DNA of 43,416 bases, from assembly GCA_024640785.1 (NCBI GenBank), contig JAHEEI010000002.1, positions 1 to 43,416 of the forward strand, written 5' to 3'. The notes under the pieces are model-generated. The model saw only the letters and a program-made list of their open reading frames with translations, did not search any database and was not told where the DNA came from. Positions 6,983 through 39,202 of the stretch are shown piece by piece. Both the position numbers and the translations under genes were made by a program. Position 1 is the stretch's first letter, and each line of letters begins with the position of its first letter. The DNA comes from Pseudomonadota bacterium. GTDB lineage: Bacteria; Desulfobacterota; WTBG01; CAIYCZ01; CAIRTM01.

Positions 6983-7807
6983 TTATCCAAGCTGTCGTTC
7001 AATCTCTTTTGTCAGACAATACGGTCCCTGAAGCTCCTTATTTCCTTCAAATATCTTTCTGTTTTCAAGATGAATACGTCTCTCTGCAAAAACCTTTACT
7101 GTTTCTATAACAAGCGGTAGTTCTCTTGTTGCTCCAGCCTGTCTTATCTTTTTAAAAAGGGGATTATCCTCCCCTTCTTCACTTGCTATTTGTTCAAGAG
7201 ATTTTTTTTTCAGCAGCTGCTCAATTTCCTGCCACAAAGGATCAAACCCTTCACCGAAAATTGGAAACGTCACGTATGTAATAGGCGCGCCCTTATCCAG
7301 CTCTTCTGTTACAAGATGCATCATGTTGCCGCTTTTTTCAGCTCTTTCCTTGATCAGCCGCCAAATTACTTCTTGCCAGGTTCCCGCCGGGCCATCGGGA
7401 GCTGCAGGGTGGAGATTTACCATATCAAATCTCTTACACATCACATCTCCTACGACAAGCATATATCCTGCCAGTACAGTTATATCCGCATGAAAAGGTT
7501 CAAGCCTTTTCATTATCTTAGCATCATATTTGTTTCGCCACCGGCTTAAAGCATCAGGGTCTGTTTTTCCTTTCTTTCTAAGATCCGGCATGAAACTTTT
7601 TGAAGAAAAACAAACAAGATTCAGTCCGTAATCTTTTGCTTGCTCAATAAACCTGTCGCTTCCTTCAGCGTCACCCTTTTCTCTGTTGCAAAATACAAAT
7701 GAAATCTCAGCCTTTACAGTTTTATCATTTATGGCTTTCACTATTGAATTGAGAAGGTTCAATGAACCCTGTCCACGTCCGGTTGAAAACCATCCGATCT
7801 TATACAT
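6983..7807 (-). CDS. Formyltransferase-family protein (PurN-like, with C-terminal extension)
   Basis: The N-terminal Rossmann-like segment plus VLAGYM...NLHPA...GP...G and a later LD.G motif resemble the PurN/Fmt formyltransferase core. GGAGG lies 6 nt upstream of the ATG. The gene starts 32 nt downstream of the ychF stop on the same strand. Confidence 0.7.
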   Translation of the reverse strand: MYKIGWFSTGRGQGSLNLLNSIVKAINDKTVKAEISFVFCNREKGDAEGSDRFIEQAKDYGLNLVCFSSKSFMPDLRKKGKTDPDALSRWRNKYDAKIMKRLEPFHADITVLAGYMLVVGDVMCKRFDMVNLHPAAPDGPAGTWQEVIWRLIKERAEKSGNMMHLVTEELDKGAPITYVTFPIFGEGFDPLWQEIEQLLKKKSLEQIASEEGEDNPLFKKIRQAGATRELPLVIETVKVFAERRIHLENRKIFEGNKELQGPYCLTKEIERQLG

Positions 7808-7839
7808 TTAAGACCTCCGGTATCTTTATCAATGAAAAA

Positions 7840-8910: not shown

Positions 8911-9100
8911 TCTGGCCTCTTAAGTAATAGATTTGTTTAAGCAGTAAATAATAGCACTCTTTAAAAAGAGGGTCAAAAGATATATAATTACAGCTCATGG
9001 TTAACGGTAAATTGTGCACAACTTGAAAGTCTGACAGCGAACTCAAAAAACTCGTTTATCTAATTTAAACGCTAAAGCCAAAAACTTAAAATATTTTCGC

Positions 9101-10117
9101 CTACTTTTTTTTGCGTTGGTCGTTCAGAAATTTATGGATTTGCTGTAAGGCAAGATCCCTGATGCTGTCTTTTTCCATAAAAATTTCATGTTTTGAGTCT
9201 TTAAAGGATAATTTTTCACAGGCTGTTTTTTCACAGAAAATATCTATTTCTTCCGATTTTACAACAGGGTCATTTTCTGCCTTCAGGACAAGAACAGGTG
9301 CTTTAATCTTGTGGCTGTTGTTAAGCGCTTTTCTGTATGCCTTGATGCTTTCACTGATCCACCTGTTAGTTGCTCCGCCTGAGATAATCTCTGGATATTC
9401 AGAAAGAATCTTATTTTCCCACAAGTCCCACCTTTTTTTACTGGAGGTAAGCTTATTATTTTTAAATTTTCGAGGTTTTCTTTTTCCCTGAGTAATACAG
9501 TAACTCTTTCCTCTGCCCAAAAATATTAACAGGTTAGTCATTAAATCGACTGCTTTTTCAGGAAATATTCCAGTGTTTAATTTCATCATCGGAGCAGCAA
9601 AAACCGCTCCATCAAAATCATCAGGAAAAGATTCAAGGTAGAGCGCTGCAATTGTGCCCCCCGTTGAATGACTGATCAGGAAAAGTTTTTTGTATTTTTT
9701 CCGGGTCACAACCGTGTCTATAAATTTTTTTAAATCGATTACATAATTGTCAAAACTCTTAATAAAAACCTTATCCCTGTCATGGTCAAGAATCCTCTCC
9801 GAAAAACCCATACCTCTGTGATCCATGAGATAAAAAGACAGGCCCGGACCCTTTAGGTCATAAATCAGTTCAGCATATTTTATATATGACTCTGATTTTC
9901 CAGGTAGAAGGATAATAGCAGTATCTTTTCTTTTCGTCTCATGTTTAAGATAGTTTATTCTTTTATTTTCAGAACCTAAAAAGAACCCTTGTTCACAACT
10001 TTTGTAAAAGGGAAGCACTTTTTTATTGTATTGGTCAAAAAAATCTTTTTCACTTATGGCAAAAACCGATGAAGCAAAACAAAATAAAATTAATAACTGA
10101 AAAATATATTTATACAT
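9101..10117 (-). CDS. Secreted alpha/beta-hydrolase (lysophospholipase/monoacylglycerol-lipase-like)
   Basis: Signal peptide MYKYIFQLLILFCFASSVFA. Nucleophile elbow SHSTGG and an LPG...HRG oxyanion region are present. I place the start at the internal ATG (10117) because AAGGAG lies 6 nt upstream. The longest ORF reaches 10153. Confidence 0.8.
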   Translation of the reverse strand: MYKYIFQLLILFCFASSVFAISEKDFFDQYNKKVLPFYKSCEQGFFLGSENKRINYLKHETKRKDTAIILLPGKSESYIKYAELIYDLKGPGLSFYLMDHRGMGFSERILDHDRDKVFIKSFDNYVIDLKKFIDTVVTRKKYKKLFLISHSTGGTIAALYLESFPDDFDGAVFAAPMMKLNTGIFPEKAVDLMTNLLIFLGRGKSYCITQGKRKPRKFKNNKLTSSKKRWDLWENKILSEYPEIISGGATNRWISESIKAYRKALNNSHKIKAPVLVLKAENDPVVKSEEIDIFCEKTACEKLSFKDSKHEIFMEKDSIRDLALQQIHKFLNDQRKKK

Positions 10118-10359
10118 TCGTATCTCCTTAATTCTTGAATGCCGCATACACATACCAATAACCCGTTAGATTAACAAAAATATTCAGGAAATCGCCATAT
10201 CCGTTAAACTGTAAACCAAATTTTTAAAACTTTAACCAGAATATAAAATATACTCAAGTGCCTAAAAAATCAAACGAAGGGTTAACCGTATCTTTTGACA
10301 CAAAAACCTTTTTTTCATATACTCGCTTAACAGCAAAAGCTTAAATCCTGGAAACGACA

Positions 10360-11772: not shown

Positions 11773-14349
11773 ATGCTGGAAAACCCCGGACAAAAGCAGA
11801 AGACTTCTGATGACTTCGAAAAACCGTCCTTAAGAGAAAAGCTTGAAAAGGACGGGACTCTCCGTGCTAGTGCAGTACTTCTTTCCGTTTTACTCTATAT
11901 TATTATTTACTTTTTAATCTATTATTATACTGGTTTGTCAATGGCAATTACCGGAATAATACCGGCTGTTACGGTTGGAGGGGTCTTTGGGCTTCTGCCT
12001 GGAATTTTTGTTGGAATTTTTGCCTTCCCGGTACTTTTTATTTCACACTTTATGCTTGAGGGTGAACTCTGGAACAGTGGTTTTACCATAGGCAGTGCTA
12101 TTTCAGGCACTGGAGCCGTAATCCTTAGCGCGGGTATTGTTGGAAGAATTCGTGACCTTGACATTCGTTTTAGAAAAAGTCTCGGAGAACGAAAACTTGC
12201 CGACGTGGTGCTTTTAGAAAATTTACAAATCCTCAGCCGACAGAAGGCAAAACTTCAGGAGATCAACAAAGGCCTTGAAAACGCCCGTGCGGAAAGAAAA
12301 AGATCTGTTTTAGTCCTTCAGGAAACAGAAAACAGGCTTGAAAAATTGATCGAAATATCTACGGACCCAATTGTTATCTGTGACAGTCAGGGAAAAGCCG
12401 AGAAGCCAAACCAGGCATTTTGTCAAATGGTTGGGTTAGCTGAAAAAGATATGATTGGTAAATCACTACATTCTTTTTCTCTCAATTCACCGGGGAAATA
12501 TCTCCTAGAATCAGGAGAAGAAATTTGCATAGATGAAGACCATTTAAATAATACCAGAAAAAAATTTGATGATTTATTTAATAAAGGCACAATGTTTAAC
12601 TGGGAAGCCTATCTTATTAATTTCAACAAAAAAATCATCTTCACCCGGAACAACGCGGTATGTCTTTATGATGAAAAAAATGAACTTACCAACATCTTTT
12701 TTGTCTTGCGTGATATAACAGAGCAGAGAAAAGCTGAGAAGGCTTTGAGAGCTTCAAAAGAGGAGGCGGAAACAGCCAACCTGTCAAAAAATTTATTCCT
12801 GACCAATATGAGCCATGAAATAAGAACCCCAATGAATGGGGTTATCGGTTTCACAGACATTCTGCTTAACAGCGGTCTTGATTCAACTCAGACAGAGTAT
12901 GCTCTTACCATCAAAAGAAGCGGGGAAGCCCTCCTTTCTCTCATTGACGATATCCTTGATTTTTCAAAAATAGAATCAGGAAAAATTTCGGTTAAGAAAA
13001 TTGATTTTGATGCTGAGCTTCTTGTTCATGATGTGTGCGAATTGATACGCCCTAAGCTTAGCGATAAAAACATAGAAATCCTTTGTCAAATTGAAGAGGA
13101 TGTGCCTTCCCAGATAAACTGCGATCCATACCGGTTCAGGCAGGTTCTGGTTAATTTAATGGGAAATGCGGCAAAGTTTACCAAAGAGGGAGAAATTGAA
13201 CTTTCTGTTGCTGTGGAAGACAAAACAGAAAACAAAATAAAACTGCACACCAGGGTTAGAGATACCGGCATCGGCATTCCAAAAGACAAAATCAACAGCA
13301 TCTTTGAAGGATTTAACCAGGCGGACAATTCAACCACAAGAAAGTATGGAGGGACAGGACTTGGACTTTCTATCAGTAAAAAAATAGCCGCTATTATGGG
13401 GGGCAATGTCTGGGCAGAAAGTGAACCTGGAAAAGGAAGTGTTTTTCATTTTACAGCATGGGTAGAAAAGGCAGTGATTAAACATAAAAAGAGACACGAA
13501 AAGAAAAATTTCAAAAACAAAAAAGTTCTTATTTATGATTCAAACAGGGCAAGCCTTAAAATTTTGAGCAAGCGTCTTAAATCCATCGAAATGGTAGTAA
13601 CAAAAACAGATCGGGCAGAAAGTGTTATAGAAGCCATTGAGTCTGATGCTAAGGCGAACAAACCCTATGATATCTGTATTCTTGATATATCAGACTCTGA
13701 TGAAACAGGCTTTGAAACTGCCCGAAAAATCCGTTCTTCCGAAAGCAGTAACATACCTATAGTTGCATTGTCTTCTTCGGTTGATATAAGCGCTAAGAGG
13801 TGTAAAGAATATGGATTTAACGGATTTCTACCAAAGCCTGTCAGCAGTAACAAGCTTTACAAAATGATTGAATGGCTTTTCTGTGAATCAGAAAAAAAAC
13901 CATTGCTAGAAGACGCTGTAAACACTGAAATCATTACCCAATACTCAATACGTGAAGACATAAAGCACTCGGTCTCAATACTTCTGGCTGAAGACAATTT
14001 GATCAATCAAAAACTTGCGGAAAAGCTTTTTACACAAGCGGGGTATATTGTTGATACCGTAAATAACGGTGAAGAAGCCGTTAACATGTTTTTATCAAAC
14101 CAGAACAAATACGATATTATATTTATGGATGTCCAGATGCCGGTGCTTAACGGACACGAGGCGACTAAAAGGCTTCGGGGAAAAGGTTTTAAGGACATCC
14201 CAATTGTTGCAGTAACCGCGAACGTAGTAAAGGGCTCCAGGGAAGAATGTCTTGAGGCGGGCATGAACGACTATATAACAAAACCCATAAAAAGAGAGAT
14301 TATTTTTCAGATAATAAATAAATGGGTAATTGAAAAGGAAACAACATAA
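11773..14349 (+). CDS. Hybrid sensor histidine kinase (TM sensor, coiled coil, PAS, HisKA, HATPase_c, degenerate REC, REC)
   Basis: H-box MSHEIRTPMNG (His348, nt 12814-12816). N/G boxes are NLMGNAAKFT and DTGIGIP...GGTGLGLSI. The C-terminal receiver has DVQMPVLNG (Asp786, nt 14128-14130) and KP. The middle receiver-like domain keeps an Asp (D638) in an atypical context (ILDISDSDETG). Confidence 0.9.
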   Translation: MLENPGQKQKTSDDFEKPSLREKLEKDGTLRASAVLLSVLLYIIIYFLIYYYTGLSMAITGIIPAVTVGGVFGLLPGIFVGIFAFPVLFISHFMLEGELWNSGFTIGSAISGTGAVILSAGIVGRIRDLDIRFRKSLGERKLADVVLLENLQILSRQKAKLQEINKGLENARAERKRSVLVLQETENRLEKLIEISTDPIVICDSQGKAEKPNQAFCQMVGLAEKDMIGKSLHSFSLNSPGKYLLESGEEICIDEDHLNNTRKKFDDLFNKGTMFNWEAYLINFNKKIIFTRNNAVCLYDEKNELTNIFFVLRDITEQRKAEKALRASKEEAETANLSKNLFLTNMSHEIRTPMNGVIGFTDILLNSGLDSTQTEYALTIKRSGEALLSLIDDILDFSKIESGKISVKKIDFDAELLVHDVCELIRPKLSDKNIEILCQIEEDVPSQINCDPYRFRQVLVNLMGNAAKFTKEGEIELSVAVEDKTENKIKLHTRVRDTGIGIPKDKINSIFEGFNQADNSTTRKYGGTGLGLSISKKIAAIMGGNVWAESEPGKGSVFHFTAWVEKAVIKHKKRHEKKNFKNKKVLIYDSNRASLKILSKRLKSIEMVVTKTDRAESVIEAIESDAKANKPYDICILDISDSDETGFETARKIRSSESSNIPIVALSSSVDISAKRCKEYGFNGFLPKPVSSNKLYKMIEWLFCESEKKPLLEDAVNTEIITQYSIREDIKHSVSILLAEDNLINQKLAEKLFTQAGYIVDTVNNGEEAVNMFLSNQNKYDIIFMDVQMPVLNGHEATKRLRGKGFKDIPIVAVTANVVKGSREECLEAGMNDYITKPIKREIIFQIINKWVIEKETT

Positions 14350-14374
14350 CCGGGCATTTTTTATATTGTAGACC

Positions 14375-16942
14375 ATGACAGACAAAGAAAATAAAAAAAA
14401 TACTCCAGGAAAGATAAAAGCACCGGAAATCCATTCGCAGAAAAGTTCTGCCCGCATTAGAATGGCCTGCCTGCTTTCTGTGCTTTGTTATTTTCTGCTT
14501 TTTACTTTCTTTGCTAAAAATACAGGGTCAGGAATGGCGATAACAGTCATTCTTCCGGTTATAACTTTTTCATGGTTTTACGGTAAAAATATTGGAATAG
14601 CTGCTGGGCTTCTAAGCTTGCCGACAAACTTTATGATGGCTATAATTTTCGGCCTGCCATGGTGGGATAAAGTTTTTATGCGTGGCGCAGGCATAGTAGG
14701 AACCCTCGGTTGTGTTTCTATGGGGCTACTTGTAGGGTATCTGCGCGATTTGTCTCTAAAAGCCAGCTTCGAAATCTCGACCCGAAAACAGGCAGAAAAT
14801 AGGGTCAAAAGACATCAGAACCAGCTAAACGAACAGTCCTTTATGCTCCAGAGGAAGAACAAAAAACTTAAGGAAGAGATTTTCCAAATAGAACAGCTGG
14901 CAATAAACGCCAATAAAATAAAAGAGTATCTCGAACGATTTGTAAGCCTTTCCCCAGACCCTATTGTTATTGCAGATATAGAGGGAAACATTATAACCCC
15001 GAATAATGCTTTTCTTGATATGATTGGATGTTCTGCTGAAGAGGTTTTAGGCCGGCCTACTTATCATTTTGTAGTTAATCGCAAAGGTATTTTTGAGACT
15101 ACTTACAATGGAAAAGTTGATTTACAGGAAGATTATCTTCAAAGAACAAAAGAGGATATAAACAGATTCTTTAAAGAAGGAAAGATATCAAACCGTGAAA
15201 TTTATTTTCAGCGTAAAGACGGCAAAGTCGTTCCTGTTAACCAGAGTATTGTGATGCTTAAAGGTGAACAGGTTATGCGCTCTGCTATCTTTTCCATAAT
15301 GCAGGATTTAACAGAACAAAAAAAAGTTGAAATAGAGCTGATAGAAGCAAGACGAGCAGCCAATGATGCAAACCGTTCCAAAAGTACATTTCTGGCAAAT
15401 ATGAGCCATGAAATAAGAACACCTATGAACGGGGTAATCGGGTTCGCTGATATACTGGTGGGGACAGGTCTTAACCCTGATCAAAAAGACTATGCCTTAA
15501 CCATAAAACGAAGCGCTGAGACACTCCTTTCACTGATCAATGACATCCTTGATTTTTCTAAGATAGATGCTGGGAAAATGGAAATGGAGGAGATTGACTT
15601 TGATGTAGAATTGCTTGTCTACAATGCCTGCGAATTTATAGAGACAAGAATAGATAAAAACAGGGTGGAGCTTCTCTGCCAGATTGAGGACAATTTGCCT
15701 GCGGAAGTAATGGGTGATCCGCAAAAGTTCAGACAGGTTCTTGTAAACTTACTGGGGAATGCTGCAAAGTTTACTGAAGGGGGAAAAATAGAATTGGCAC
15801 TTAAGGTTGAAGAAGAACAGGACGAATGCATTAAACTGCATACAAGCGTTAAAGATACCGGAATAGGAATTCCTTCTGAAAAGCTTGAAAGCATTTTCAA
15901 CCTGTTCCATCAGGCAGACAACTCTCAAAACAGAAAATATGGCGGGGCAGGCCTGGGGCTTTCTATCTCCCGAAAAACAGCGGTTCTCCTGGGTGGAGAT
16001 GTCTGGGCTGAAAGCAATCCCGGAAAAGGCAGTATCTTTCATTTTACCGCATGGGTTAAAAAAACAAAAATGAAAAACGCACATAGGCTTGTGCCAGCTT
16101 CTCTTTTCGGGAAGAAAGCCTTGATCGCTGATGACAGTAAATTAAATCTTGAGATTCTCACCCATATTTTAAAATCTGCGGGCATGAATGTCTTCGTATC
16201 TTCCAGCGAAACAAACATACTTAAAACTTTAAAGGAGGCCTGCAAAAAAAAGGCTCCCGTTGATATCTGTATTTTAAATATAGTAATGCCGAGCATGAAC
16301 GGTTATGATGTGGCAAAAAAGATCCGGGCAGAACATGGTGCTTCAATTCCTCTGATTGCTTTTTCCTCTTCAATAGAAGATAGTATGGAAAAATGCCAGA
16401 ATGCAGGTTATAATGGTTTCCTGCCAAAACCGATTAACAAAATCAAGCTATACAATATGATGGGGAGGCTTCTTGGTAAGCCTGAAGACAAAGATGAACA
16501 GCAACAAAAAGTTAAAAAAGATACAAAAATAGATACACAGTATTCTATTCATGAAGTTGTTAAGCATTCAATTTCTATTCTTCTTGCTGAAGATAACGCT
16601 GTTAATCAGAAGCTGGCAACAAAACTTCTGACAAAGGAAGGTTACCGTGTTGAAATAGCAAATAACGGCAAAGAGGCTCTGGATATATACCTGAGTTCTC
16701 CAGAAAAGTATGATATAATTCTGATGGATATTCAGATGCCCGAGCTTAACGGCCTTGAGACTACAAGAATTTTAAGAAGCAAAGGTTTCGAACAAATTCC
16801 GATAATTGCCATGACAGCAAACACAATGGATGGTGACCGTAAAAAGTGTTTTGAAGTCGGGATGAACGACTATATCTCCAAGCCGATAAGAAGAGAAATA
16901 GTATTCCAGGTCTTAAAGAAATGGGTATGTGTAAAAGCTTAG
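14375..16942 (+). CDS. Hybrid sensor histidine kinase, tandem paralogue of the upstream gene
   Basis: Same architecture. H-box MSHEIRTPMNG (His345, nt 15407-15409). The C-terminal receiver has Asp785 (nt 16727-16729). The middle receiver-like domain has Asn where the phospho-acceptor Asp is expected (ILNIVMPSMNG, Asn635, nt 16277-16279). The gene starts 25 nt after the upstream stop. Confidence 0.9.
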   Translation: MTDKENKKNTPGKIKAPEIHSQKSSARIRMACLLSVLCYFLLFTFFAKNTGSGMAITVILPVITFSWFYGKNIGIAAGLLSLPTNFMMAIIFGLPWWDKVFMRGAGIVGTLGCVSMGLLVGYLRDLSLKASFEISTRKQAENRVKRHQNQLNEQSFMLQRKNKKLKEEIFQIEQLAINANKIKEYLERFVSLSPDPIVIADIEGNIITPNNAFLDMIGCSAEEVLGRPTYHFVVNRKGIFETTYNGKVDLQEDYLQRTKEDINRFFKEGKISNREIYFQRKDGKVVPVNQSIVMLKGEQVMRSAIFSIMQDLTEQKKVEIELIEARRAANDANRSKSTFLANMSHEIRTPMNGVIGFADILVGTGLNPDQKDYALTIKRSAETLLSLINDILDFSKIDAGKMEMEEIDFDVELLVYNACEFIETRIDKNRVELLCQIEDNLPAEVMGDPQKFRQVLVNLLGNAAKFTEGGKIELALKVEEEQDECIKLHTSVKDTGIGIPSEKLESIFNLFHQADNSQNRKYGGAGLGLSISRKTAVLLGGDVWAESNPGKGSIFHFTAWVKKTKMKNAHRLVPASLFGKKALIADDSKLNLEILTHILKSAGMNVFVSSSETNILKTLKEACKKKAPVDICILNIVMPSMNGYDVAKKIRAEHGASIPLIAFSSSIEDSMEKCQNAGYNGFLPKPINKIKLYNMMGRLLGKPEDKDEQQQKVKKDTKIDTQYSIHEVVKHSISILLAEDNAVNQKLATKLLTKEGYRVEIANNGKEALDIYLSSPEKYDIILMDIQMPELNGLETTRILRSKGFEQIPIIAMTANTMDGDRKKCFEVGMNDYISKPIRREIVFQVLKKWVCVKA

Positions 16943-25015: not shown

Positions 25016-25639
25016 TTATTCTGGTTTATTTGACGTCTCAAAACAAGGAACACAGAATTCTTTGCCGTTAAAGTTTTCCAGCTTTGTTGCCATCGTCATC
25101 TCCCCACACTTTTCACAGGCTTTTGAAGAAGCAATCTCTGCATATTCCGGCATCACAAACGCAGTCTCTTTTGTTTCAAATATATCTATAAAAGGTTTTG
25201 CCAGCAAATCCATTGATTTTAAAAATTTCTGGCGCTTTTTCTGCTCTTTGGTTGCCATTCCTGAAGCAACCGCTTGTTCCAAGACATCAAACTCTTCTTT
25301 TTCTTTTCCCAGATAACGGTAAAAACTCTTTCTGGAAAAACGGTATGCTTTATTCTGATTTCTGCTGATTACGGTATATGCATTTTTGCCGTAGTTTTTT
25401 ATAATAAGGTTTCCCTTGCCGGAGGTGGTTCCCAAAACTATTTGCAAGGCGTCAACAGAGCAGGAATCGTTTTCACAAACCGCGACAACTTCTTCATCTC
25501 CTGACCGGTTCAACTTAAGAATGCGCATGGCTTCTTTAGAAACCCGATATCCGTAAATAATACCCGGACAAAGGTGCCCATGAAAACGAATGCATTCTTT
25601 AAGGTCTTCTGGAACTTCTGTGTTATTTAAAACATCCAT
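25016..25639 (-). CDS. FmdE-family protein with C-terminal zinc ribbon
   Basis: N-terminal FHGHLCPG...G motif typical of the FmdE domain, plus a C-terminal CEKCGE...CVPC zinc-ribbon. The ATG directly abuts the yggS stop (TAAATG), and AGGAAG lies 6 nt upstream. Confidence 0.8.
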   Translation of the reverse strand: MDVLNNTEVPEDLKECIRFHGHLCPGIIYGYRVSKEAMRILKLNRSGDEEVVAVCENDSCSVDALQIVLGTTSGKGNLIIKNYGKNAYTVISRNQNKAYRFSRKSFYRYLGKEKEEFDVLEQAVASGMATKEQKKRQKFLKSMDLLAKPFIDIFETKETAFVMPEYAEIASSKACEKCGEMTMATKLENFNGKEFCVPCFETSNKPE

Positions 25640-26314
25640 TTAATACTTCCTATCGCCGAAAACCACTCTGCCTAATCGGATCATGTTCGAGCCCTCTTCG
25701 ATAGCAACCTGATAGGACTCGGACATTCCCATTGAAAGCGTTTTCAGGTTAACACCAGGCAGATCAAGCTCCTTTATATTATCAAAAAATTTTTTTGCTT
25801 TTCTAAAATAGGGTCTGCTGTCTTCCGGATCGCTGGTCATGGGCCCCATTGTCATCAAACCCTCTACAGACATATGTTCGAGCCGGGTCATACTGATAAC
25901 AAGATCTTCAACTTTTTCAAAATCGGGATCAACGCCTTTTTTAGATACTTCCTGTCCGGTGTTTATTTCAACAAATACAGGCATTATTTTTCCGTCGGCA
26001 GATGCCCTATAGTTCAGGGCTTCTGCTTGATTAAAAGATGAAAGGGTCTGCACCAGGTCAAACACTTTTAACGCACGTTTCATCTTATTTTTCTGAAGAT
26101 CTCCAATCATGTGCCATCTGACTTTTTTGGCGCTCTCTCCAAGCATCGCTACCATTTTCTCTGCTTCCTGCAAGTAGTTCTCGCCAACATCTGTTGCACC
26201 GGCATTAATAACCTCTTTTACCTCTTCAGGTGTTCTTGTCTTTGCCGCCAGAACAATGGTCACATATTCTGGAATTTCGTTTCTTATTTTTTGATATTGT
26301 TCAGTAATTCCCAT
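25640..26314 (-). CDS. yggS: YggS-family pyridoxal-phosphate homeostasis protein
   Basis: Strings LAAKTRTPEEV...GATDVGENYLQE, HMIGDLQKNK and LSMGMSESY...GSNMIRLGRVVFG match YggS/PROSC. I prefer the ATG at 26314. The longest ORF starts at a TTG at 26326. Confidence 0.85.
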   Translation of the reverse strand: MGITEQYQKIRNEIPEYVTIVLAAKTRTPEEVKEVINAGATDVGENYLQEAEKMVAMLGESAKKVRWHMIGDLQKNKMKRALKVFDLVQTLSSFNQAEALNYRASADGKIMPVFVEINTGQEVSKKGVDPDFEKVEDLVISMTRLEHMSVEGLMTMGPMTSDPEDSRPYFRKAKKFFDNIKELDLPGVNLKTLSMGMSESYQVAIEEGSNMIRLGRVVFGDRKY

Positions 26315-26990
26315 AGTTTTTCTCAAAAAATCACAAGGAACAGTGCTGCGTCATGTAAAGAAGAGTCAAAAGGAAAGTTTCGTTCTTTGACTGAAAGACT
26401 ATACCGGCTTTACGCGCTTCTTCTGCAATCAGAAGGTTAACCACATCCCGCCTCTAAAATATTTGACGCTTCTAAAAGGTGACCTTTACTTCTAAATATA
26501 TCTCAAGGAAGAACTCTTTGTCAAGAATGACCCCTCGGAACAACCCATCAACATAACTATCTATTACAACTTTTTTTCTTATCTGCAACAGCCCGGTTTC
26601 CAGACCCGGTCTTTGCCCCGGTAATTTCCGAGAACATCTCAATATATCTGGGAAAGTTAACCAGTAGAATATTCGAACCGAACTCGCTAACGCTTGATCC
26701 TGTAAAGTGTACAAGTATCTCACGCGAGGAGGTGGTGGGGTTGATTCTTGCCGGGTATTTTTTATGTACCCCCCTTCCTGATCTATCTGCAGAAGAAGGG
26801 TTGTTTTCGGTCAGTTGTCCTGTTTTTCTTTCATTAGGAACTTAAGAAGCCTTTAAAACTTTCATCCAATAAAAACTAACCTTATCATGTTTTTTAACCA
26901 TTTATAATTACTCAAGGTTTGATCCCAAACATCAAAATCAAGATACACATTCTAAATTTGAAGTAATTTAATTTTATTAGCAAAACAGCA

Positions 26991-27821
26991 TTACTCCCGA
27001 AAAATAACGGTCCCGGCATTTTCTCCCTTAAGAGCCCGGGTAATATTACCCGGTTCCATTCCATTAATAATATAAATTTTTTCGATAACCTCACTGTTTT
27101 GCAGTATTTCCAGGCAAGGACGTTCAATAACAAGATCGTCCAGATCCTTTTCTAATAAAGCCTTTGCACCAATTTCCGAGATAAACTCAGCATCCGGATC
27201 TTTTTTAGGATCATCTGTATACAAACCCTTTTCATCTTTAATAAAAATACAGCTTCTAGCACCGGTCAGGTCAGCTAAAAGAACTGTGCCAACGTCAGTA
27301 CGATGACTTGGGATGCGGCCCCTTGCCGGGGGAATGGCAAAATAATCATAGGGTGGCATACCATGTGTAACCGGTATACAGCCCTGGGAATAGTAGTTGG
27401 GCAATTTTACAAGGTCATCGTGTGCAATTTGCACTCCTCCCCAAGGGCCGAGTAGGGTAGATACCAGCAGAGAATTCTGTTCTGAAATGGTTGTTCCAAA
27501 ACGAGCAATAATACCCGTAGGCATACCAAGTTCAAGACCTATAGAGTAAATGTGTCTACTACGGGTACCGCCTCCCGCAGTAAGAAGCATTTTATATTCT
27601 GACTTATTTTCAACAATCTCCTCAATAATTCTCGGCAGAGCCTTAGCTCCCCGGTCACATATGGATTGCCCACCGATCTTTAAGATATTAAGATCAGGAA
27701 ACATCCTCCTTTGCGGCACCAGCTGCATTTCATCTATGAGTGATTTACTGACCAGACTTTCTCCCATCAGCTTACTTTTAACATGCAAACGCTTGCCGTC
27801 TTTTTCACGTATCAATGCCAT
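26991..27821 (-). CDS. Amino-acid-kinase-fold protein resembling molybdenum storage protein subunits (MosA/MosB-like)
   Basis: Strings KIGGQS, TAGGGTRSRH, GMPPY, RTDVG, FIKDEKGLYTDDPKK and INGMEPGNITRALKGENAGTVI parallel my recollection of Azotobacter vinelandii MosB/MosA. They do not fit UMP kinase. AAGGAAG serves as the Shine-Dalgarno sequence. Confidence 0.7.
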   Translation of the reverse strand: MALIREKDGKRLHVKSKLMGESLVSKSLIDEMQLVPQRRMFPDLNILKIGGQSICDRGAKALPRIIEEIVENKSEYKMLLTAGGGTRSRHIYSIGLELGMPTGIIARFGTTISEQNSLLVSTLLGPWGGVQIAHDDLVKLPNYYSQGCIPVTHGMPPYDYFAIPPARGRIPSHRTDVGTVLLADLTGARSCIFIKDEKGLYTDDPKKDPDAEFISEIGAKALLEKDLDDLVIERPCLEILQNSEVIEKIYIINGMEPGNITRALKGENAGTVIFRE

Positions 27822-27985
27822 AAGACTTCCTTATTTAAAGACCTGTTACGGCTTCAAATATACTAATACACTTCAGCCGTCAGCCTGTGTAATGCTCAAT
27901 TAACCTTTGTTGAAAATACCGTTGTCCAAGATCCATTTCTTAATGGATATTTTAAAGGGAAAGTTACAATTTCATTGGGTCCGAG

Positions 27986-28216
27986 CTATACTTCTACATC
28001 ATCCTGACTTTTGCCCTTCTTTTTATCCACCTCAAGAAAAACAAGATCAGCACCTAATGTTTTGGCAATCTGGTCCAGCTCCTGTTTTCGAAGGTGTTTC
28101 GCATAGACCTTCATGTCAATTCCGGCAATAGCTACGAGTTTGTAACGAGGAGACTTCTTGCCCGATCCGATTTTTGTACGTTCACGATAGAAAATTTTTG
28201 CTTTTTTTGCTGGCAT
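27986..28216 (-). CDS. Small basic hypothetical protein (76 aa; 81 aa if the upstream ATG at 28231 is used)
   Basis: GGAGG lies 8 nt upstream of the ATG at 28216. The protein is Lys/Arg-rich (PAKKAKIFYRERTKIGSGKK...) with an acidic C-terminus. It lies 164 nt upstream of the MosB-like gene on the same strand. No family recognised. Confidence 0.5.
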   Translation of the reverse strand: MPAKKAKIFYRERTKIGSGKKSPRYKLVAIAGIDMKVYAKHLRKQELDQIAKTLGADLVFLEVDKKKGKSQDDVEV

Positions 28217-28675
28217 CAGGTTTCCCTCCATTAATTAGAATTAGCAGAATTTTTAAACGGAACTTCTGTTGAAAATTTAACAGCACTTTCTAAGTGTGTA
28301 TAACGATAATGCAAGATTGTCAAATATAATAAGTTTATGGTTAAAATCTTTAAATTTATTGATTTTATTTAATAATTTTGATCAGGAAGAGGGAATTTGA
28401 ATCCCCTTTCTATGATTTTTTCATAAATTTAAATCAACTAGTTACAAGATTTAAAATTATTATTTTTTCCGTCACTAATTCATTTTTTGAATTTGGAAGA
28501 AAAATATCAATTAAGTTATTATTATACCTTAACCTGTTGCTCTCCCATTCGAACAGAACTCACATAGTATCCGGACGCACCTCCATCTGCATCCGTTCCG
28601 ATAATGGGCCTGAGTCAATATGGCTAAATAAATAATCGCTCTATAACTAATATTGGTGCAACTATGTGGAGCAGG

Positions 28676-29488
28676 TCATTTTGGAATTGCTACTGCTTTA
28701 AAACCATATTCTCTAAGAATTTTTTGGCCTTTAGGAGATAAAATATACAGCGCCAGCCGCCATGCTTCTTTAGAAGCTCCATCTCTAACTAAAAGGCCAT
28801 AATCGGCCCCTACAGAAAGCTCTTCAGGTATTCTGATAATTTTAAGGGTTTGAACTTCTTTTTGAGCTAAAACAGCATTGGTGCAATAAGTCAGGAACAC
28901 GTCAGCCTTCTTTTCACTCATTACCCATCCATATGGGTTGCGTCCATCAGGGGCCTTCTCACTATTTGGCCCGCCAGTCAGTTGAAGAGCTTTATTGGAA
29001 AGCTCTGTAAAGCTCCCGTCTTTTATCGTTTCTGCATTATGAAAAAGTTCCCACGCATAGTCTCCGCTTGGATCAGCTTTTGGGGTTGATGTGCCCACTT
29101 TAATATTCTTATCCATAAGAGTATTTAGTAAATTATCTGTAGTTAAATTTACATAAGGCTGCGCCAAGGCGCAAAGCTGATTACGGGCAAACAGAACAAC
29201 TGGACTTCCCCAACCTCCCGATACGAGTTTTTCGGGGTGTGCCATATTTGCAGAAGCAAAAACATCTGGCTTTTCACCTTGTTCAATTGCTTTTCTTAAA
29301 AGGCCACTTGGTCCGAACTTTGTAGTTACTTTTGTTTTATAGGCCTTTTCATAGGAAGCTACTGCATCTCCTAGCGCTGTTTTCAAGCTTCCTGCTGCAT
29401 AGAGCGTTAAAGAATCAGCTGATGCAGATAAAGGAATTAAAAAACAAACAAGAGTAACTAAGGCTGCTATATTTTGATATCTTCTCAT
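28676..29488 (-). CDS. modA: Periplasmic molybdate/tungstate-binding protein, ModA-like
   Basis: Signal peptide (MRRYQNIAALVTLVCFLIPLSASA), then LTLYAAGSLKTALGDAV...FGPSG.L...I.QG...DVFASAN, which is typical of ModA. GGAG lies 6 nt upstream of the ATG at 29488 (the longest ORF reaches 29500). A Moco-like riboswitch precedes the gene. Confidence 0.75.
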   Translation of the reverse strand: MRRYQNIAALVTLVCFLIPLSASADSLTLYAAGSLKTALGDAVASYEKAYKTKVTTKFGPSGLLRKAIEQGEKPDVFASANMAHPEKLVSGGWGSPVVLFARNQLCALAQPYVNLTTDNLLNTLMDKNIKVGTSTPKADPSGDYAWELFHNAETIKDGSFTELSNKALQLTGGPNSEKAPDGRNPYGWVMSEKKADVFLTYCTNAVLAQKEVQTLKIIRIPEELSVGADYGLLVRDGASKEAWRLALYILSPKGQKILREYGFKAVAIPK

Positions 29489-29617
29489 AATAGTCTCCAT
29501 TTTATTTTAGACACAACTTATATATTGGATGGATCTTGTTTTTAAATGTATGTTAATATTGCCAAGCAAAGCTAGTACAATATTTATAACCTTTTAATAA
29601 TCCGTATTTAATTTCAT

Positions 29618-29653
29618 AAAAAAGCCAGTTCCCGTGTTTAGATAGGAACCGGC
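29618..29653 (-). terminator. Intrinsic terminator (expression platform of riboswitch copy A)
   Basis: Minus-strand RNA: GCCGGUUCC - 12-nt loop - GGAACUGGC (9 bp including one G-U), followed by UUUUUU. Confidence 0.65.
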
Positions 29654-29670
29654 CTCTTTGCTAGCAATTT

Positions 29671-29768
29671 TCTCCTTTTCAAATACGGGAGGCATGACCC
29701 TTTCGTTTCAAACCCTTAGGCCTTACGTCATAGGTTTTTCACCCTTAGACAAATAAGGCTCGGAGACA
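29671..29768 (-). promoter_or_regulatory. Moco/Tuco-riboswitch-like aptamer, copy A
   Basis: Minus-strand RNA: GUCUCCGAGCCUUAUUUGUCUAAGGGUGAAAAACCUAUGACGUAAGGCCUAAGGGUUUGAAACGAAAGGGUCAUGCCUCCCGUAUUUGAAAAGGAGA. It carries the CUCCGAGCC and GCCUCCC strings I associate with the Moco RNA motif. It has a closing stem UCUCC/GGAGA, an inner GGGU/ACCU hairpin and a UAUGAC/GUCAUG stem. It sits upstream of a Mo/W binding protein. Confidence 0.6.
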
Positions 29769-29825
29769 ATATTTAATTTTAAGTTATGTTTATAATTTTT
29801 TTTTACCTGCCTTGTATCCAATCCT

Positions 29826-31130
29826 TTAGAATTTAAAGATAAGATCAAGGGCCACATCGGTCTTATCATCTTCCGGACCGCGCACACTGTCCGTTATCCA
29901 GGTGGTTGCCGCAAACACTATCTGTGGATGAAACTTGTACTGGAGTGAAAACTTACTTCCACGACGGTTTGCCCCGCCAAAATTTGCATCAGCAAAATAA
30001 CCCACAACAGCATCGGGCTCTATCCGTGCATACTTGTACCCAAAGGCCCAGTCACCCTTTTCTTTAATCTTGCCGATTGAAAACCCAAGAGCATATGCAT
30101 AGTCGTTATCGTCACTGTCAGTATTTTTGGCGTAATCACCGTAAAGCTGAACCGGGATTCCGCAAAGCTTTGTATCCCAGAAGGAGGTTACATCAAAAAC
30201 CTTAAATCCGCCTTCGCCGCTGTTACCTTTATTTTTACTGCTTTTCCACTCAGTAAGAGTGTCCCAGTCTATGTTAGAAAAATCATAAAGCGTTGCTGCC
30301 AGAGTCCACTGGCTTTTTGCAAGATCCCAGGTATACCCCGTCTGATATCCATAAAGAGCGGCGTCATCAGACTCGGGGCTATAGCCTTCGTCATTGTTAT
30401 TGTTCTCGTCAATAACGAACTGTGCAAGGGTAATAAAGGGTTTGAATGTATCCGTCAGGTTAAAGACATATTTTTCATAAACGCCTTCGGGATTAAGATC
30501 AGCGTCCCAGACAATGTCCGTATGAACAAACGGATTCGGGACCTTTCCGCCTGCAAGCTCCAGACCTTTAAGCCAGTTGGGCCTGTAAAGTGCATAAGCA
30601 CGGTCGATCCAGATATCTTTTTCTGAAAAGGAATCATTAAAGGACTGATTTGTCGAAGTGCCAACGTTGCTATCTCCGGTGGCCAGACGCAGGACCACAT
30701 CCAGCTCATCACAGAGCTTCTTTGCAAAATTAAGCCTCAGCCTGAACCTGCCCCGGTGTTGGTCAGCCTTGTTGGTTCTGTTTACGATAGCTTCATATCT
30801 CAACCGGAAATCACCGCCGAACTTAATTCCCTTTAACCATTCGGGAACGGGCATGGTTTCTTCATTCACAAGCTCTGCCACAATACTCTTTATCTGCTCA
30901 CGATTCGCCGGCGAAACAACGTCAGCCGTCGGAGTTGCTGCCGAAGCCTTGTTCTGCAGGCTGTCAATGACCCGGTTCTGCTCTTGTATTTGCTTCTGCT
31001 GCTCTTGAATCATCTTCTCCATTTCAGCAAATTTTTTCATCAGTTCCGCATCTGACATAGAAAATCCCGGTCCACTGCAGACCAGAACATAGGAAAGTGC
31101 AAATATCATGATTTGTATACCTTTTTTCAC
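29826..31130 (-). CDS. Outer-membrane porin-like beta-barrel protein with N-terminal coiled coil
   Basis: GTG start 6 nt after GAGGAG. Signal peptide, then a Gln/Glu-rich coiled-coil segment (MKKFAEMEKMIQEQQKQIQEQNRVIDSLQ). Alternating aromatic/polar beta-strand patterns follow, and the C-terminus ends in Phe (...LDLIFKF). The gene starts 59 nt downstream of the tupA-like stop. Confidence 0.65.
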   Translation of the reverse strand: MKKGIQIMIFALSYVLVCSGPGFSMSDAELMKKFAEMEKMIQEQQKQIQEQNRVIDSLQNKASAATPTADVVSPANREQIKSIVAELVNEETMPVPEWLKGIKFGGDFRLRYEAIVNRTNKADQHRGRFRLRLNFAKKLCDELDVVLRLATGDSNVGTSTNQSFNDSFSEKDIWIDRAYALYRPNWLKGLELAGGKVPNPFVHTDIVWDADLNPEGVYEKYVFNLTDTFKPFITLAQFVIDENNNNDEGYSPESDDAALYGYQTGYTWDLAKSQWTLAATLYDFSNIDWDTLTEWKSSKNKGNSGEGGFKVFDVTSFWDTKLCGIPVQLYGDYAKNTDSDDNDYAYALGFSIGKIKEKGDWAFGYKYARIEPDAVVGYFADANFGGANRRGSKFSLQYKFHPQIVFAATTWITDSVRGPEDDKTDVALDLIFKF

Positions 31131-31189
31131 TCTGCTCTCCTCTTCTTATTAATGGTTTATATTATATTTTAAATTATATATTTAAATGC

Positions 31190-32002
31190 CTATTTAATAG
31201 ACATCGGAACAAATAGCGGCTGGTTGAATTTTTCCTTGCCGAACTCACGGATTATTTCCTGTCCCTGAATTGAGGTGATCCACCCGATAAGAGCCATTGC
31301 ATGAATATACTTTACATGGGCATGTTTTGCAGGATTAACCGCGATTATACCATATGGATTATACAGCTCCGGATCACCCTCACACAAGACCGGAAGGCTT
31401 ATCTTCTTTGAAAAAGCCAGAAAAGTGCCCCGGTCTGCCAGGGTGTAGGCTTTTTTTTCATCTGCAATCGTTAAGACCAAGCCCATGCCCTGACCCGCCT
31501 CCTGGTACCACTGGCCTTTGGCGGATATACCCGCTTTTTCCCAGATCCTTTTCTCTTTTTTATGGGTCCCTGAATCATCTCCCCGTGAAATAAAAGGCGC
31601 CTTGGCTTCGGCAATCTTTTTAAATGCCAGGGCGGCATCTTTCATACCTTTTATCCCTGCAGGATCATCTTCAGGCCCGACAATCACAAAGTCGTTATAC
31701 ATGACATCTCTGCGGTTAACTCCAAACCCTGCGTCTACAAATTTGTCTTCTGCCTCTCTGGCATGGACAAAAACAATATCCACATCACCGTTTTCACCAA
31801 GTTTTAATGCTTTGCCCGTTCCCACAGCAATAACATCAACTTTTATATCAAACATTTTTTCAAATGGCGGAATAAGGGCCTCCAGAAGACCTGAATTGTC
31901 CGTGCTGGTGGTTGTCGACATCTTCAGTCTCTGTTCAGCATTTAAAATTCCTGAACAAAAAACAAGGATCAAAACAGTAAATGTTAATGCTTTCTTCTTC
32001 AT
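31190..32002 (-). CDS. tupA: Periplasmic tungstate-binding protein, TupA-like
   Basis: Signal peptide, then the MSTTTSTDNSGLLEALIPPFEK and VFVHA...MYNDFVIVGP..DPAGI patterns typical of TupA-type binding proteins. GGAGGAG lies 5 nt upstream of the ATG. Confidence 0.75.
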   Translation of the reverse strand: MKKKALTFTVLILVFCSGILNAEQRLKMSTTTSTDNSGLLEALIPPFEKMFDIKVDVIAVGTGKALKLGENGDVDIVFVHAREAEDKFVDAGFGVNRRDVMYNDFVIVGPEDDPAGIKGMKDAALAFKKIAEAKAPFISRGDDSGTHKKEKRIWEKAGISAKGQWYQEAGQGMGLVLTIADEKKAYTLADRGTFLAFSKKISLPVLCEGDPELYNPYGIIAVNPAKHAHVKYIHAMALIGWITSIQGQEIIREFGKEKFNQPLFVPMSIK

Positions 32003-32157
32003 ACTCTCTCCTCCATATAGGTTATTATGTTTTCATGTAAAAATTTTTTTAAAATAGTCTGCCAGTTAAAACGTGCGATTTTAAAAATGATGCCCATTGT
32101 GCATTACAGAAGGTTAAAATCCTCTAGTCCTCGCCCTTTGGATCTTTTTAAAAGCTT

Positions 32158-32200
32158 AAAAAAACAAAAAAACCGGTACCCAAAGCAAAGGATACCGGTT
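32158..32200 (-). terminator. Intrinsic terminator (expression platform of riboswitch copy B)
   Basis: Minus-strand RNA: AACCGGUAUCC - UUUGCUUU - GGGUACCGGUU (11 bp including one G-U), followed by UUUUUGUUUUUUU. Confidence 0.7.
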
Positions 32201-32218
32201 ATAAAATATTCCAGTCTT

Positions 32219-32318
32219 TTTCCCTTGTCCGAATACGGGAGATATGATCTTTTCAAATCATACCCTTACGGCCACTTCTCATAGCCTTTAAAGGCCTTAG
32301 ATACACGGCTTTAGGAAA
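32219..32318 (-). promoter_or_regulatory. Moco/Tuco-riboswitch-like aptamer, copy B (divergent core)
   Basis: Minus-strand RNA: UUUCCUAAAGCCGUGUAUCUAAGGCCUUUAAAGGCUAUGAGAAGUGGCCGUAAGGGUAUGAUUUGAAAAGAUCAUAUCUCCCGUAUUCGGACAAGGGAAA. It has the same order of elements as copy A (AGCC, UCUAAGG, hairpin, UAUGA, GGCC, UAAGGGU, CUCCCGUAUU). Base pairs are compensatory in the closing stem (UUUCC/GGAAA against UCUCC/GGAGA) and in the first hairpin (GGCC/GGCU against GGGU/ACCU). Confidence 0.5.
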
Positions 32319-32338
32319 TTATTTTGTATGTAATGAAA

Positions 32339-32367
32339 ACAATATATATACAAAGCGCTTTTGTCAA
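32339..32367 (-). promoter_or_regulatory. Putative sigma70 promoter driving riboswitch B and the tupA-like operon
   Basis: The minus strand has TTGACA (32367-32362), a 17-nt spacer, then TATTGT inside a TATATATATT run. It ends about 20 nt upstream of the aptamer. Confidence 0.4.
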
Positions 32368-32563
32368 TAGAAAATTTATCCTCAAGCTCAAAAAACAGGA
32401 ATTTAATAAAAATCCTTCTTGCAAATATTTTTTAATTCCAATAATATTTGAACACAACGCAATAATTTAGTACAATTTGCACAGGCACTAAATAAAAAAA
32501 GCTGGTATAGCCTTCAAATACCAAACCAAGCCCATATAAAACTTCACAAGAAGCAAAATCATC

Positions 32564-37300: not shown

Positions 37301-39202
37301 TTAGTCAAGCCCCAGTTTTTTCAGGGTTTCTTTTTCGGGCAGGCCGGTCTCAAGATTCCAGCCTCGCAGCGCATAATATTCATCCATCATCTTTTCAAAC
37401 GCTTTTTTATCAACAGCCTTTCCTTTTCTGGAGGTTACTTCCGCACCCTTGCCTGGAAGAAAAAGCTCGGGATTATACATGCCAAAAACATCCGCAATCA
37501 TCTCTTCACGTTCAATAAACATAAAATCCGGCAACACATCACTTTTGCGGCCTTTTCTTCCTTCACGAACAAGGATCAGCCTGTTCAGGGTAAACAGACG
37601 GTTTCCAGTAAGATCATACTCCTCCTCACCAAATACCTTCCCCGTAACTGCGGAAAATATCTGGGCCTCTAAGGTCGGGTCGCCCACATGGTCTGCACTG
37701 TCGGCAACATCATAAACAGGCCAGGCAAAATCACACAAATTTAAAGACTCCTTCAAATACTGCCTGTTTTGAACCTTAAACGCTGCAAGGGCCTTGCCTT
37801 CATAAGTTGAAAAATCAACTGCATGCTCACTGCCCCAGAATGCTTTAGCAATATTTTTCAAGACCTCTGTGGATACATAGCTCTTTTCACCCTTGGACAG
37901 ATACCACAGAGCCCACTTGGTCAGAGGTTCGCATATTTCATGCAGTTCGGTAATAAAAGGCCTTGGCTCTGTGGCATAAATAACCGCGGACATGGTGAAC
38001 ACCTTGGGCCCGTAGGCAATTGCACGTCCGCTTTCTGTAAGCATGTTAGCTGTAATGCTTGCTGACTTCTCGCCAAAGATTTTTGATGCGCGAAGCACTC
38101 CCTGAGAAAGAATTTCCCCAAAACCATCCCTGATGCAAATTTTCTTAAGCACTTCCTCCAGGAAATCCCTGCTCCCCATCTGTGAAAAGTCTAAACCCGT
38201 TTCTTTTTGATTAATTATTCCCTGCTGTACGCACTGATCAACCCACATCAGCAGAAAGACCATATCTAGAGCACACACCCCAAAATCATTTGCCAGCATT
38301 GGAGCGTCAAAGCTTGCCTCAGTGAATTTGCCGTGCAGTTTTTTATCCCACATCATGTAAAAATTTCCAATTTGGCATTTCCGGATATCCTCTGTTCCGA
38401 CAGGACTTCTGTGTAGAGACCGCCAGCATCCTTGGGGACAGCCACTGCAGTGAACCCGTTTCACCACTTCAGAACCGGGAAGTATAATCGGGTTATTAAA
38501 GAGATGAAAATAACCCTTACCCATCATTGCTTTAAGCCGGGTCCTGATAGCTTTTATTTTCTCATCATCAGCTGCAACAACCTTTCCTGTTCCATGCACT
38601 GTAATCGCTTTTAATTTTTTTGATCCCATAATCGCGCCAAACCCCATAGATGCGGTACTGCCTTCATCAGAAAATAAAATCGCAAAACGGATCAGACCTT
38701 CTCCGGCTGGCCCAATAGACAGAATACTGTGTTTATTGCTGGTTTCACCGTGAAGGAGCTCACGGGTTTTAAAGTTACCCAGACCCCACAAATGCCTGGC
38801 ATCTCTTATTTCCACATTCTCGTTCTCAATGCTTAAATAAACAGGATTTTCTGCCCGGCCTTTAATAATTATACCGTCATATCCAGACTTTTTAAGGACC
38901 ACCGCAATATGACCACCCATATTGGCACTTACAAAGGTTTCAGGATAGACACAGGGTGATTTTCCACAGGCCAGCAGCCTGGGAGCGGATGGGGCTTTGG
39001 TTCCAGCCAAAGGTCCTGTCATTAATATCAGGGGGTTCTCAGGGTCTAATGCGTCAGCCTTCCCCGAAGCCATATCCCAGTACAGTTTTTGCCCAATTCC
39101 AAGCCCGCCAATATAGGTATCTGAGTAGTCTTTGGTATCCAGAAACTCAATATTACCCGAAGTAAGGTCAACTGAGATTATCTTTCCTGCCCAACCAAGC
39201 AT
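37301..39202 (-). CDS. Aldehyde:ferredoxin oxidoreductase-family enzyme (tungsten/molybdopterin-dependent)
   Basis: N-terminal GWAGKIISVDLTSG, the AOR family [4Fe-4S] motif CSGCPQGC, and a length of 633 aa. AAGGAG lies 7 nt upstream of the ATG. Confidence 0.88.
   Translation of the reverse strand: MLGWAGKIISVDLTSGNIEFLDTKDYSDTYIGGLGIGQKLYWDMASGKADALDPENPLILMTGPLAGTKAPSAPRLLACGKSPCVYPETFVSANMGGHIAVVLKKSGYDGIIIKGRAENPVYLSIENENVEIRDARHLWGLGNFKTRELLHGETSNKHSILSIGPAGEGLIRFAILFSDEGSTASMGFGAIMGSKKLKAITVHGTGKVVAADDEKIKAIRTRLKAMMGKGYFHLFNNPIILPGSEVVKRVHCSGCPQGCWRSLHRSPVGTEDIRKCQIGNFYMMWDKKLHGKFTEASFDAPMLANDFGVCALDMVFLLMWVDQCVQQGIINQKETGLDFSQMGSRDFLEEVLKKICIRDGFGEILSQGVLRASKIFGEKSASITANMLTESGRAIAYGPKVFTMSAVIYATEPRPFITELHEICEPLTKWALWYLSKGEKSYVSTEVLKNIAKAFWGSEHAVDFSTYEGKALAAFKVQNRQYLKESLNLCDFAWPVYDVADSADHVGDPTLEAQIFSAVTGKVFGEEEYDLTGNRLFTLNRLILVREGRKGRKSDVLPDFMFIEREEMIADVFGMYNPELFLPGKGAEVTSRKGKAVDKKAFEKMMDEYYALRGWNLETGLPEKETLKKLGLD

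Follow-up and report, generated by a model that had tools for sequence, protein, structure and literature searches.

The window examined here, that is, the whole stretch of 43,416 nucleotides analyzed (contig JAHEEI010000002.1), carries on its minus strand two riboswitches of a known class, designated copy B and copy A. Our results indicate that copy B constitutes the P3-less RF01055 5' leader of a tungstate-uptake transcript, in which tupA is followed by a porin gene, and that it most likely functions as a transcriptional OFF switch; we assign a probability of about 0.8 to this reading. Copy A is found 2.4 kb downstream of copy B in the same gene string, approximately 50 nt past the stop codon of the porin gene. 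Loci of relatives used for comparison are designated with an L followed by a number.

Copy B belongs to the Moco/Tuco riboswitch family

The search of the whole window with Rfam cmscan yielded two matches, both to RF01055 (Moco/Tuco riboswitch) and both on the minus strand, and a permissive scan of positions 27800..32500 retrieved no other Rfam family at E up to 1. Copy B is a genuine member of this known family: its match (32328..32206, minus strand) reached 60.9 bits against a gathering score of 36 bits, which copy A also exceeds, with an E-value of 2.4e-12 (2.6e-13 in a local scan), and helices P1, P2, P4 and P5 were all aligned by cmscan, the core from P1 to P1 spanning 32318..32220. According to cmscan and to the sequence, both copies alike display a GAAA tetraloop and a CUAAG/UAUG receptor (UCUAAG...UAUGA); such a tetraloop on P4, together with its receptor in the P2 bulge, is a described feature of the family (PMC2408646).

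A preliminary description of this DNA had proposed that both leaders share one fold, which cmscan identifies as the Moco motif. All the strings quoted in that description were located on the minus strand, including those of P1 (UUUCC/GG(G)AAA in copy B vs UCUCC/GGAGA in copy A) and of the P2 hairpin (GGCC/GGCU vs GGGU/ACCU), CCUAAAGCC vs CUCCGAGCC, AUCUCCC vs GCCUCCC, and the P4 hairpin of copy B, AUGAUUUGAAAAGAUCAU. The stretch delimited at that time, 32158..32318, has as its exact limits the first base of P1 (32318) and the last base of the U tract (32158).

A candidate sigma-70 promoter, whose predicted start lies just ahead of the Rfam match, was identified upstream of the aptamer (Table 1); its TTGACA is unchanged in 7 of 7 aligned orthologous leaders, and this site would drive the transcription of the leader.

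The proposed gene context was equally borne out, as copy B lies ahead of a gene for TupA and copy A ahead of a gene for a ModA-like protein. TupA matched the Geobacter tungstate-binding protein (PDB 3LR1, E 1e-94) and 5MY5 (E 5.5e-65), and scored 245.7 bits with NF041772, under its 400-bit equivalog cut-off; the ModA-like protein showed only a distant relationship to ModA proteins of solved structure (7TAV, E 1.2e-13). The window holds neither tupBC nor any other permease or ATPase gene of an ABC transporter for the two binding proteins, an absence that weighs against our reading of copy B. An aldehyde:ferredoxin oxidoreductase family gene, a member of a tungsten enzyme family, is located at 37301..39202 (minus strand), 5 kb from copy B, and no RF01055 match was found upstream of it.

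Table 1. Positions of the riboswitch elements and associated genes in the window.
Feature	Position	Strand	Details
Candidate sigma-70 promoter of the leader	32339..32367	-	TTGACA, 17 nt, TATTGT; consensus scan 10/12
Copy B aptamer	32206..32328	-	RF01055; P1, P2 with tetraloop receptor, P4 with GAAA loop, P5; P3 absent
Candidate antiterminator of copy B	32186..32227	-	P1 3' strand CAAGGGA and ACUGG would pair with terminator 5' strand UCCUUUG and CCGGU
Intrinsic terminator hairpin of copy B	32171..32200	-	11-bp stem, 8-nt loop; terminator scan
U5GU7 tract of copy B terminator	32158..32170	-	Read from sequence
tupA, periplasmic tungstate-binding protein; predicted first regulated gene	31190..32002	-	270 aa; Pfam PBP_like_2 2.6e-48
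Porin_5 outer-membrane porin gene between the riboswitches	29826..31130	-	Pfam PF16930 3.7e-50; syntenic in L084 and L098
Copy A aptamer	29656..29777	-	RF01055, 77.9 bits; P3 absent; canonical junctions; C-A mismatch in P5
Copy A terminator	29618..29654	-	GGCCGGUUCC...GGGAACUGGC, then U6; 16-bp hairpin
ModA-like solute-binding protein gene, downstream of copy A	28676..29500	-	NF002917 382 bits vs cut-off 264

Conservation of the leader in relatives

Alignment with TupA retrieved 80 loci in a scan of GTDB species genomes, and, because the best relative among them was only 68% identical, close relatives were taken from metagenome look-ups; an exact look-up of the window TupA returned no record. 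With a covariance model built from 11 aptamers (R1), riboswitches were detected at about 12 of these 80 loci and at the loci of every close relative; the syntenic metagenome contigs of the latter have the gene order RF-1, PilZ, leader, tupA, porin, YggS, FmdE. As R1 places P1 of the aptamers of the copy B type (B-type) one base out of register, base pairs were counted on a separate B-type alignment in the Rfam register. Over 10 distinct orthologous leaders, 96.4% of the cells of the B-type aptamer and terminator were paired, vs 32-54% in slid-partner controls, and 4 pairs, distributed in P2a, P4 and the terminator, displayed changes on both sides. Because the divergence within the clade is small, this conservation gives moderate support by itself, in agreement with the family model.

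Both copies lack the P3 stem

Regulski et al. divided 176 Moco RNAs into those with and those without P3, the former being associated with molybdenum cofactor genes and the latter with tungsten-using organisms and genes (PMC2408646), a rule that has been adopted in later work (PMC11725836, PMC10265488). All P3 columns were deleted in copies A and B according to cmscan, with 2 to 3 nt between P2 and P4; copy A displays a single U at the place of P3, and its orthologues (A-type) are also P3-less. The Escherichia coli moaA leader, included as a positive control, scored 103.6 bits with the RF01055 model and retained an intact P3. Given that P3 is the published discriminator and that it is missing from both copies, both are assignable to the Tuco class by this criterion, and do not constitute a P3-plus/P3-minus pair. 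The association of the Tuco subclass with tungsten genes also holds at this locus, with tupA downstream, an aldehyde:ferredoxin oxidoreductase family gene in the window, and all B-type copies preceding tupA. Since direct ligand binding has been shown for no member of the class, including the type member (PMC2408646, PMC10265488), we infer the Tuco ligand from a correlation; our literature search found neither a solved structure of a Moco/Tuco aptamer nor a direct binding assay.

The absence of P3 bears directly on the proposal, made in the preliminary description, that the two copies form a natural specificity pair, in which copy B would sense the tungsten cofactor and control tungstate uptake, copy A would sense the molybdenum cofactor and control molybdate uptake, and the junctions would encode the discrimination. 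The identity of the downstream genes, TupA-like and ModA-like, respectively, is consistent with such a pair, as are the differences in J1/2 and J5/1 between A and B, with the B version being kept in its clade; furthermore, a ModA-like relative (L104) adjoins a gene for a xanthine-dehydrogenase-type molybdoenzyme, so that this protein family may serve molybdenum, and the ligand pocket would be that of a class with no solved structure. Nevertheless, copy A would have to belong to the P3-containing Moco subclass, and the only published Moco/Tuco discriminator is missing in both copies (PMC2408646), while the moaA control keeps it. The junctions of copy A are those of P3-less riboswitches located before tupA in other phyla (L005, L007, L010), and copy A also matches the aptamer that precedes moeA in L003. 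In L086, L093 and L094, the A-type copies lie inside the tupA operon, before porins and not before modA, and ModA-like relatives with 75-80% identity carry no riboswitch. A similar case from Pelobacter carbinolicus, in which an RNA without P3 precedes a predicted molybdate transporter, was taken by Regulski et al. as tungsten-related (PMC2408646). With these findings, the specificity pair finds no support and is unlikely.

Proteins of the ModA/WtpA type, moreover, often bind both oxyanions, which likewise speaks against the pair. Regarding the L104 locus (3669-10217), its ModA-like gene is 80% identical to that of the window, lacks a riboswitch, has a Porin_O_P gene in front, and is followed by an aminotransferase gene and by the gene of the xanthine-dehydrogenase-type (MoCoBD) enzyme, a neighborhood pointing to a possible role of this ModA family in supplying molybdenum enzymes.

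A lineage-specific variant of the aptamer junctions

The junction strings of copies A and B are truly different, as had been noticed in the preliminary description. Those conserved in the family read CCGAGCC (P1/J1/2/P2) and GGAAAGGAG (P5/J5/1/P1), with which copy A agrees apart from a single base of P5, whereas copy B displays UCCUAAAGCC and GGACAAGGG at these places. The J1/2 of copy B is UAAAG vs GAG, or AAA vs GA in the Rfam register, being one to two bases longer; its J5/1 is ACA, and ACA or AUA in the orthologues, vs the consensus AAA; and its P1 in the Rfam register corresponds to UUUCCU/AGGGAA, with U-A as the top pair and with no bulge in P2. Copy B and its orthologues share UUCC-UAAAG and GGA(C/U)AAGGG. 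The aptamers from outside the clade of the window were all canonical, with CUCC followed by GAG, GAA, GAU, AAA or AAG, in addition to GGAAAGGAG. J1/2 is variable in other members as well (GAA, GAU, AAA, and UA in E. coli), and the J5/1 change occurred only in the B clade among about 30 aptamers collected in this work. The junction positions at which copy B deviates from the family consensus hardly vary in other members, and its score was around 17 bits under that of copy A; the RF01055 scores ranged from 48 to 61 bits for B-type aptamers (48-54 for the orthologues) and from 57 to 78 bits for A-type aptamers.

In a metagenome scan, the B-type variant pattern was retrieved from 10 contigs only, and in 10 of 10 it was placed directly upstream of tupA orthologues, 76-90% identical to that of the window. 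The invariance of the junctions in L090-L099 was partly forced by the search pattern, so that independent evidence is provided only by L081, L084 and L086, which were derived from the protein search and carry the same B-type junction strings. As judged from these sequences, the B-type variant appears confined to a narrow uncultured clade of Desulfobacterales, the only place where it was found, and it always lies ahead of tupA. The window itself was assigned to an uncultured lineage of Desulfobacterales through its TypA relatives, with named Desulfobacterales at about 75% identity.

Departures at nearly invariant positions could alternatively reflect a copy B that is decaying or ligand-independent, in which the junction changes have abolished binding, and which would act as a constitutive attenuator or be bound by another factor. 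The lower scores of the B-type aptamers, and the J5/1 substitution that is seen in none of the other aptamers collected here, would fit such a scenario. We regard it as highly improbable, since relatives with a TupA of only 76-90% identity retain the variant junctions and every helix, among them the three loci that were found by protein alone, independently of the pattern; moreover, P2a, P4 and the terminator display compensatory changes, and decay would not keep the GAAA loop, its receptor, P5, and the overlap between P1 and the antiterminator.

It is also conceivable, albeit improbable, that the B-type junction constitutes a true specificity variant inside the P3-less class, defined by its extended J1/2, by the pyrimidine of J5/1 and by U-A as the top pair of P1. 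If this were the case, the two copies, B-type and canonical, would respond to different pterin species within a single operon, for instance the tungsten and molybdenum forms, or the mature cofactor and a precursor, and oxyanion uptake would be gated by two inputs; such a locus would provide a natural minimal pair for mapping W/Mo discrimination by a structurally unsolved riboswitch.

Termination, antitermination and the proposed switch

The terminator after copy B, which had been described as very strong, is composed of AACCGGUAUCC-UUUGCUUU-GGGUACCGGUU followed by U5GU7, with an 11-bp stem and a free energy of -18.0 kcal/mol. Among the orthologues, 99% of its cells are paired, and one A-U to G-C compensatory pair was observed. 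The candidate antiterminator (Table 1) is a two-part helix with a predicted minimum free energy of -10.1 kcal/mol (ViennaRNA, partial transcript from J5/1 to the terminator loop), and 92% of its cells are paired in 10 orthologues, with zero double changes; because no compensatory change was detected, we propose it as a putative element. This helix is incompatible with P1 as well as with the terminator, as is usual for OFF switches that act by termination. When P1 was enforced, the leader folded into the aptamer plus the terminator (-51.0 kcal/mol), and the unconstrained full-length prediction (-52.7 kcal/mol) displayed other long-range pairing, better by 1.7 kcal/mol, a result that weighs against our reading. 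We set this pairing aside as a by-product of the resemblance of the 5' strand of P2 to that of the terminator.

The mechanism that we propose for copy B would operate as follows. With plentiful cofactor, which by the P3 rule would be the tungsten form, Tuco, the aptamer would close P1 (UUUCCU/AGGGAA), and CCGGUAUCC would remain free to form the 11-bp terminator, in such a way that RNA polymerase would halt at U5GU7. With scarce cofactor, the 3' strand of P1 would pair with the 5' strand of the terminator, and this antiterminator would allow the transcription of tupA. Copy A, lying within the same gene string, would probably serve as a second, internal checkpoint ahead of the ModA-like gene, and in relatives it may play the same checkpoint role for porin genes, rather than being the sensor of another metal.

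A spacer of about 155-158 nt (32003..32157) separates the copy B terminator from the tupA start codon. No significant fold was found in this spacer (z +1.18), which is conserved in L081, L084 and several other relatives, and absent in L086, L093 and L094. Since this long spacer holds a weak promoter-like site (32053..32024), part of the tupA expression could bypass the switch.

Copy A and the probable organization of the transcript

The minimum free energy fold of copy A consists of the aptamer plus its 16-bp terminator, a hairpin that is kept in four lineages. tupA is preceded by a B-type aptamer and directly followed by a P3-less A-type aptamer (57-70 bits) in L086/L091/L099, L093 and L094, where the A-type copy is ahead of a Porin_O_P gene and not of modA, and in L086 and L094 this gene is followed by one with a CarboxypepD_reg domain. 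The A-type copy of L086 displays a double compensatory change in P5, from CC/GG to UA/UA. Conversely, no RF01055 element was found at the close ModA-like relatives (75-80% identity; L104, L106 and L107). As the A-type aptamer follows tupA in relatives and ModA-like relatives are devoid of riboswitches, it is tied to the tupA operon and not to ModA, and the arrangement of the window looks like a lineage-specific swap of the downstream cassette. The reading of copy A as a molybdenum sensor does not fit with the position of these sister-lineage copies, after tupA and before porin genes.

As the interval from tupA to copy A is free of terminator-like sites, a single transcript with two checkpoints, B and A, is plausible. 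An alternative is that both copies belong to separate transcription units with promoters of their own, copy A being the ordinary 5' leader of the ModA-like gene. Copy A has a complete terminator of its own, an AT-rich stretch with -10-like strings lies upstream of it, and the genes downstream of A in relatives differ from those of the window, all of which would be expected from separate units. Against this, the terminator scan found no terminator-like site after the stop codon of tupA or that of the porin gene, the distance from the latter to aptamer A is short, the consensus scan reported no promoter-like site on the minus strand in this region, and the sequence upstream of A is not conserved among the A-type loci. 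Hence, we consider separate units a possibility of some weight, though a doubtful one, and co-transcription would be the preferred arrangement.

Other arrangements of RF01055 aptamers were observed among the loci collected. Direct tandems of two P3-less aptamers occur in L005 (4237-4551), L007 (4280-4683) and L101 (746-1108); two of these tandems, from a Schekmanbacteria and a Poribacteria MAG, stand before tupA, and that of L101, where TupA shares 71% identity with the protein of the window, stands before a porin-...-tupA operon. In L003 (7179-10571), a canonical P3-less aptamer precedes two moeA genes, the second of which is fused to a PBP_like domain, and a gene for a regulator with HTH and PBP_like domains adjoins the moeA pair on the opposite strand. 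The region between tupA and the A-type aptamer of L094 (about 3760-3950, minus strand) contains GGAGUG(U/C)GGA-like tandem repeats.

Additional genes at and around the locus

Porin genes are found inside the riboswitch-controlled tupA string in the window (Table 1), in L086 (6074-7504) and in L094 (3525..2104, minus strand), and they are candidates for outer-membrane oxyanion entry. Downstream of the ModA-like gene, a 276-aa ORF of the 'amino acid kinase' type (26991..27821, minus strand) is clearly homologous to the molybdenum storage protein of Azotobacter vinelandii (beta subunit 2OGX_B, E 9e-61; alpha subunit, E 6e-42), with a single subunit gene being present here; no second storage-protein subunit or pseudogene was found in the 854-nt gap at 27822..28675. 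An 81-aa basic ORF located just upstream of this homologue (27986..28231, minus strand) has no Pfam match, and a conserved counterpart adjoins a MosB-like gene in L012, where a tupA homologue lies nearby. Further downstream, positions 25016..26326 (minus strand) encode a YggS-family PLP protein and an FmdE-domain protein with a DksA/TraR zinc finger, which are syntenic with tupA in the close relatives L081, L084, L090 and L095; in these, a PNP_UDP_1 phosphorylase gene stands where the window has the cassette formed by the ModA-like and MosB-like genes. Finally, two adjacent paralogous genes for hybrid histidine kinases of 858 and 855 aa are present at 11773..16942 (plus strand), both with PAS, HisKA and HATPase domains and two receiver domains.

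Significance and comparison with known systems

As it stands, this work provides the annotation of two riboswitches of a known class on tungstate/oxyanion uptake genes, in an uncultured lineage of sulfate reducers; what is slightly unusual is the lineage-specific B-type core variant, paired with a canonical copy downstream. The locus has some value because the class has no ligand-bound structure and its metal discrimination rests on one correlation, the presence or absence of P3, and a conserved clade with two divergent P3-less aptamers bracketing tupA offers compact natural variants for assays on junction nucleotides. In addition, several candidate tungsten-handling genes are gathered under or next to the switches, namely those of TupA, two types of porins, the ModA-like protein, the single-subunit molybdenum storage protein homologue, and the FmdE-like protein.

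The closest known system is the P3-lacking Tuco subclass of RF01055 (PMC2408646), with which copy B shares P1, P2 with the 11-nt receptor, the GAAA loop of P4, P5, and the absence of P3, as well as the location upstream of a tungstate-uptake gene, the use of an intrinsic terminator as expression platform, and the occurrence of serial copies in one gene string. Serial P3-less riboswitches with terminators are already known, and P3-less RNAs are associated with tungsten genes (PMC2408646). Copy B differs from this subclass in its J1/2, (U)AAA instead of GA, in its J5/1, ACA or AUA instead of AAA, and in the U-A pair at the top of P1; besides, unlike the known serial copies, copies A and B are not adjacent, with two genes located between them.

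In Eubacterium limosum, Tuco riboswitches were reported ahead of tupABC, wor1 and iron transporters, with the tupABC copy being P3-less (PMC11725836). These share with the present locus the P3-less RF01055 fold, the association with tungstate uptake, and the presence, in some of them, of terminator hairpins (PMC11725836); however, a translational mechanism with sequestration of the ribosome-binding site was proposed for the tupABC copy (PMC11725836), whereas here a terminator precedes the start codon by 158 nt and no tupBC genes follow. With respect to the genetically validated Moco riboswitch of E. coli moaA, copy B shares its Rfam family and its P1/P2/P4/P5 core, and the J1/2 of moaA (UA) also starts with U. 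In contrast, the moaA element has a P3 stem, a translational platform over the ribosome-binding site and the canonical AAA in J5/1, and it controls molybdopterin synthesis genes, unlike copy B.
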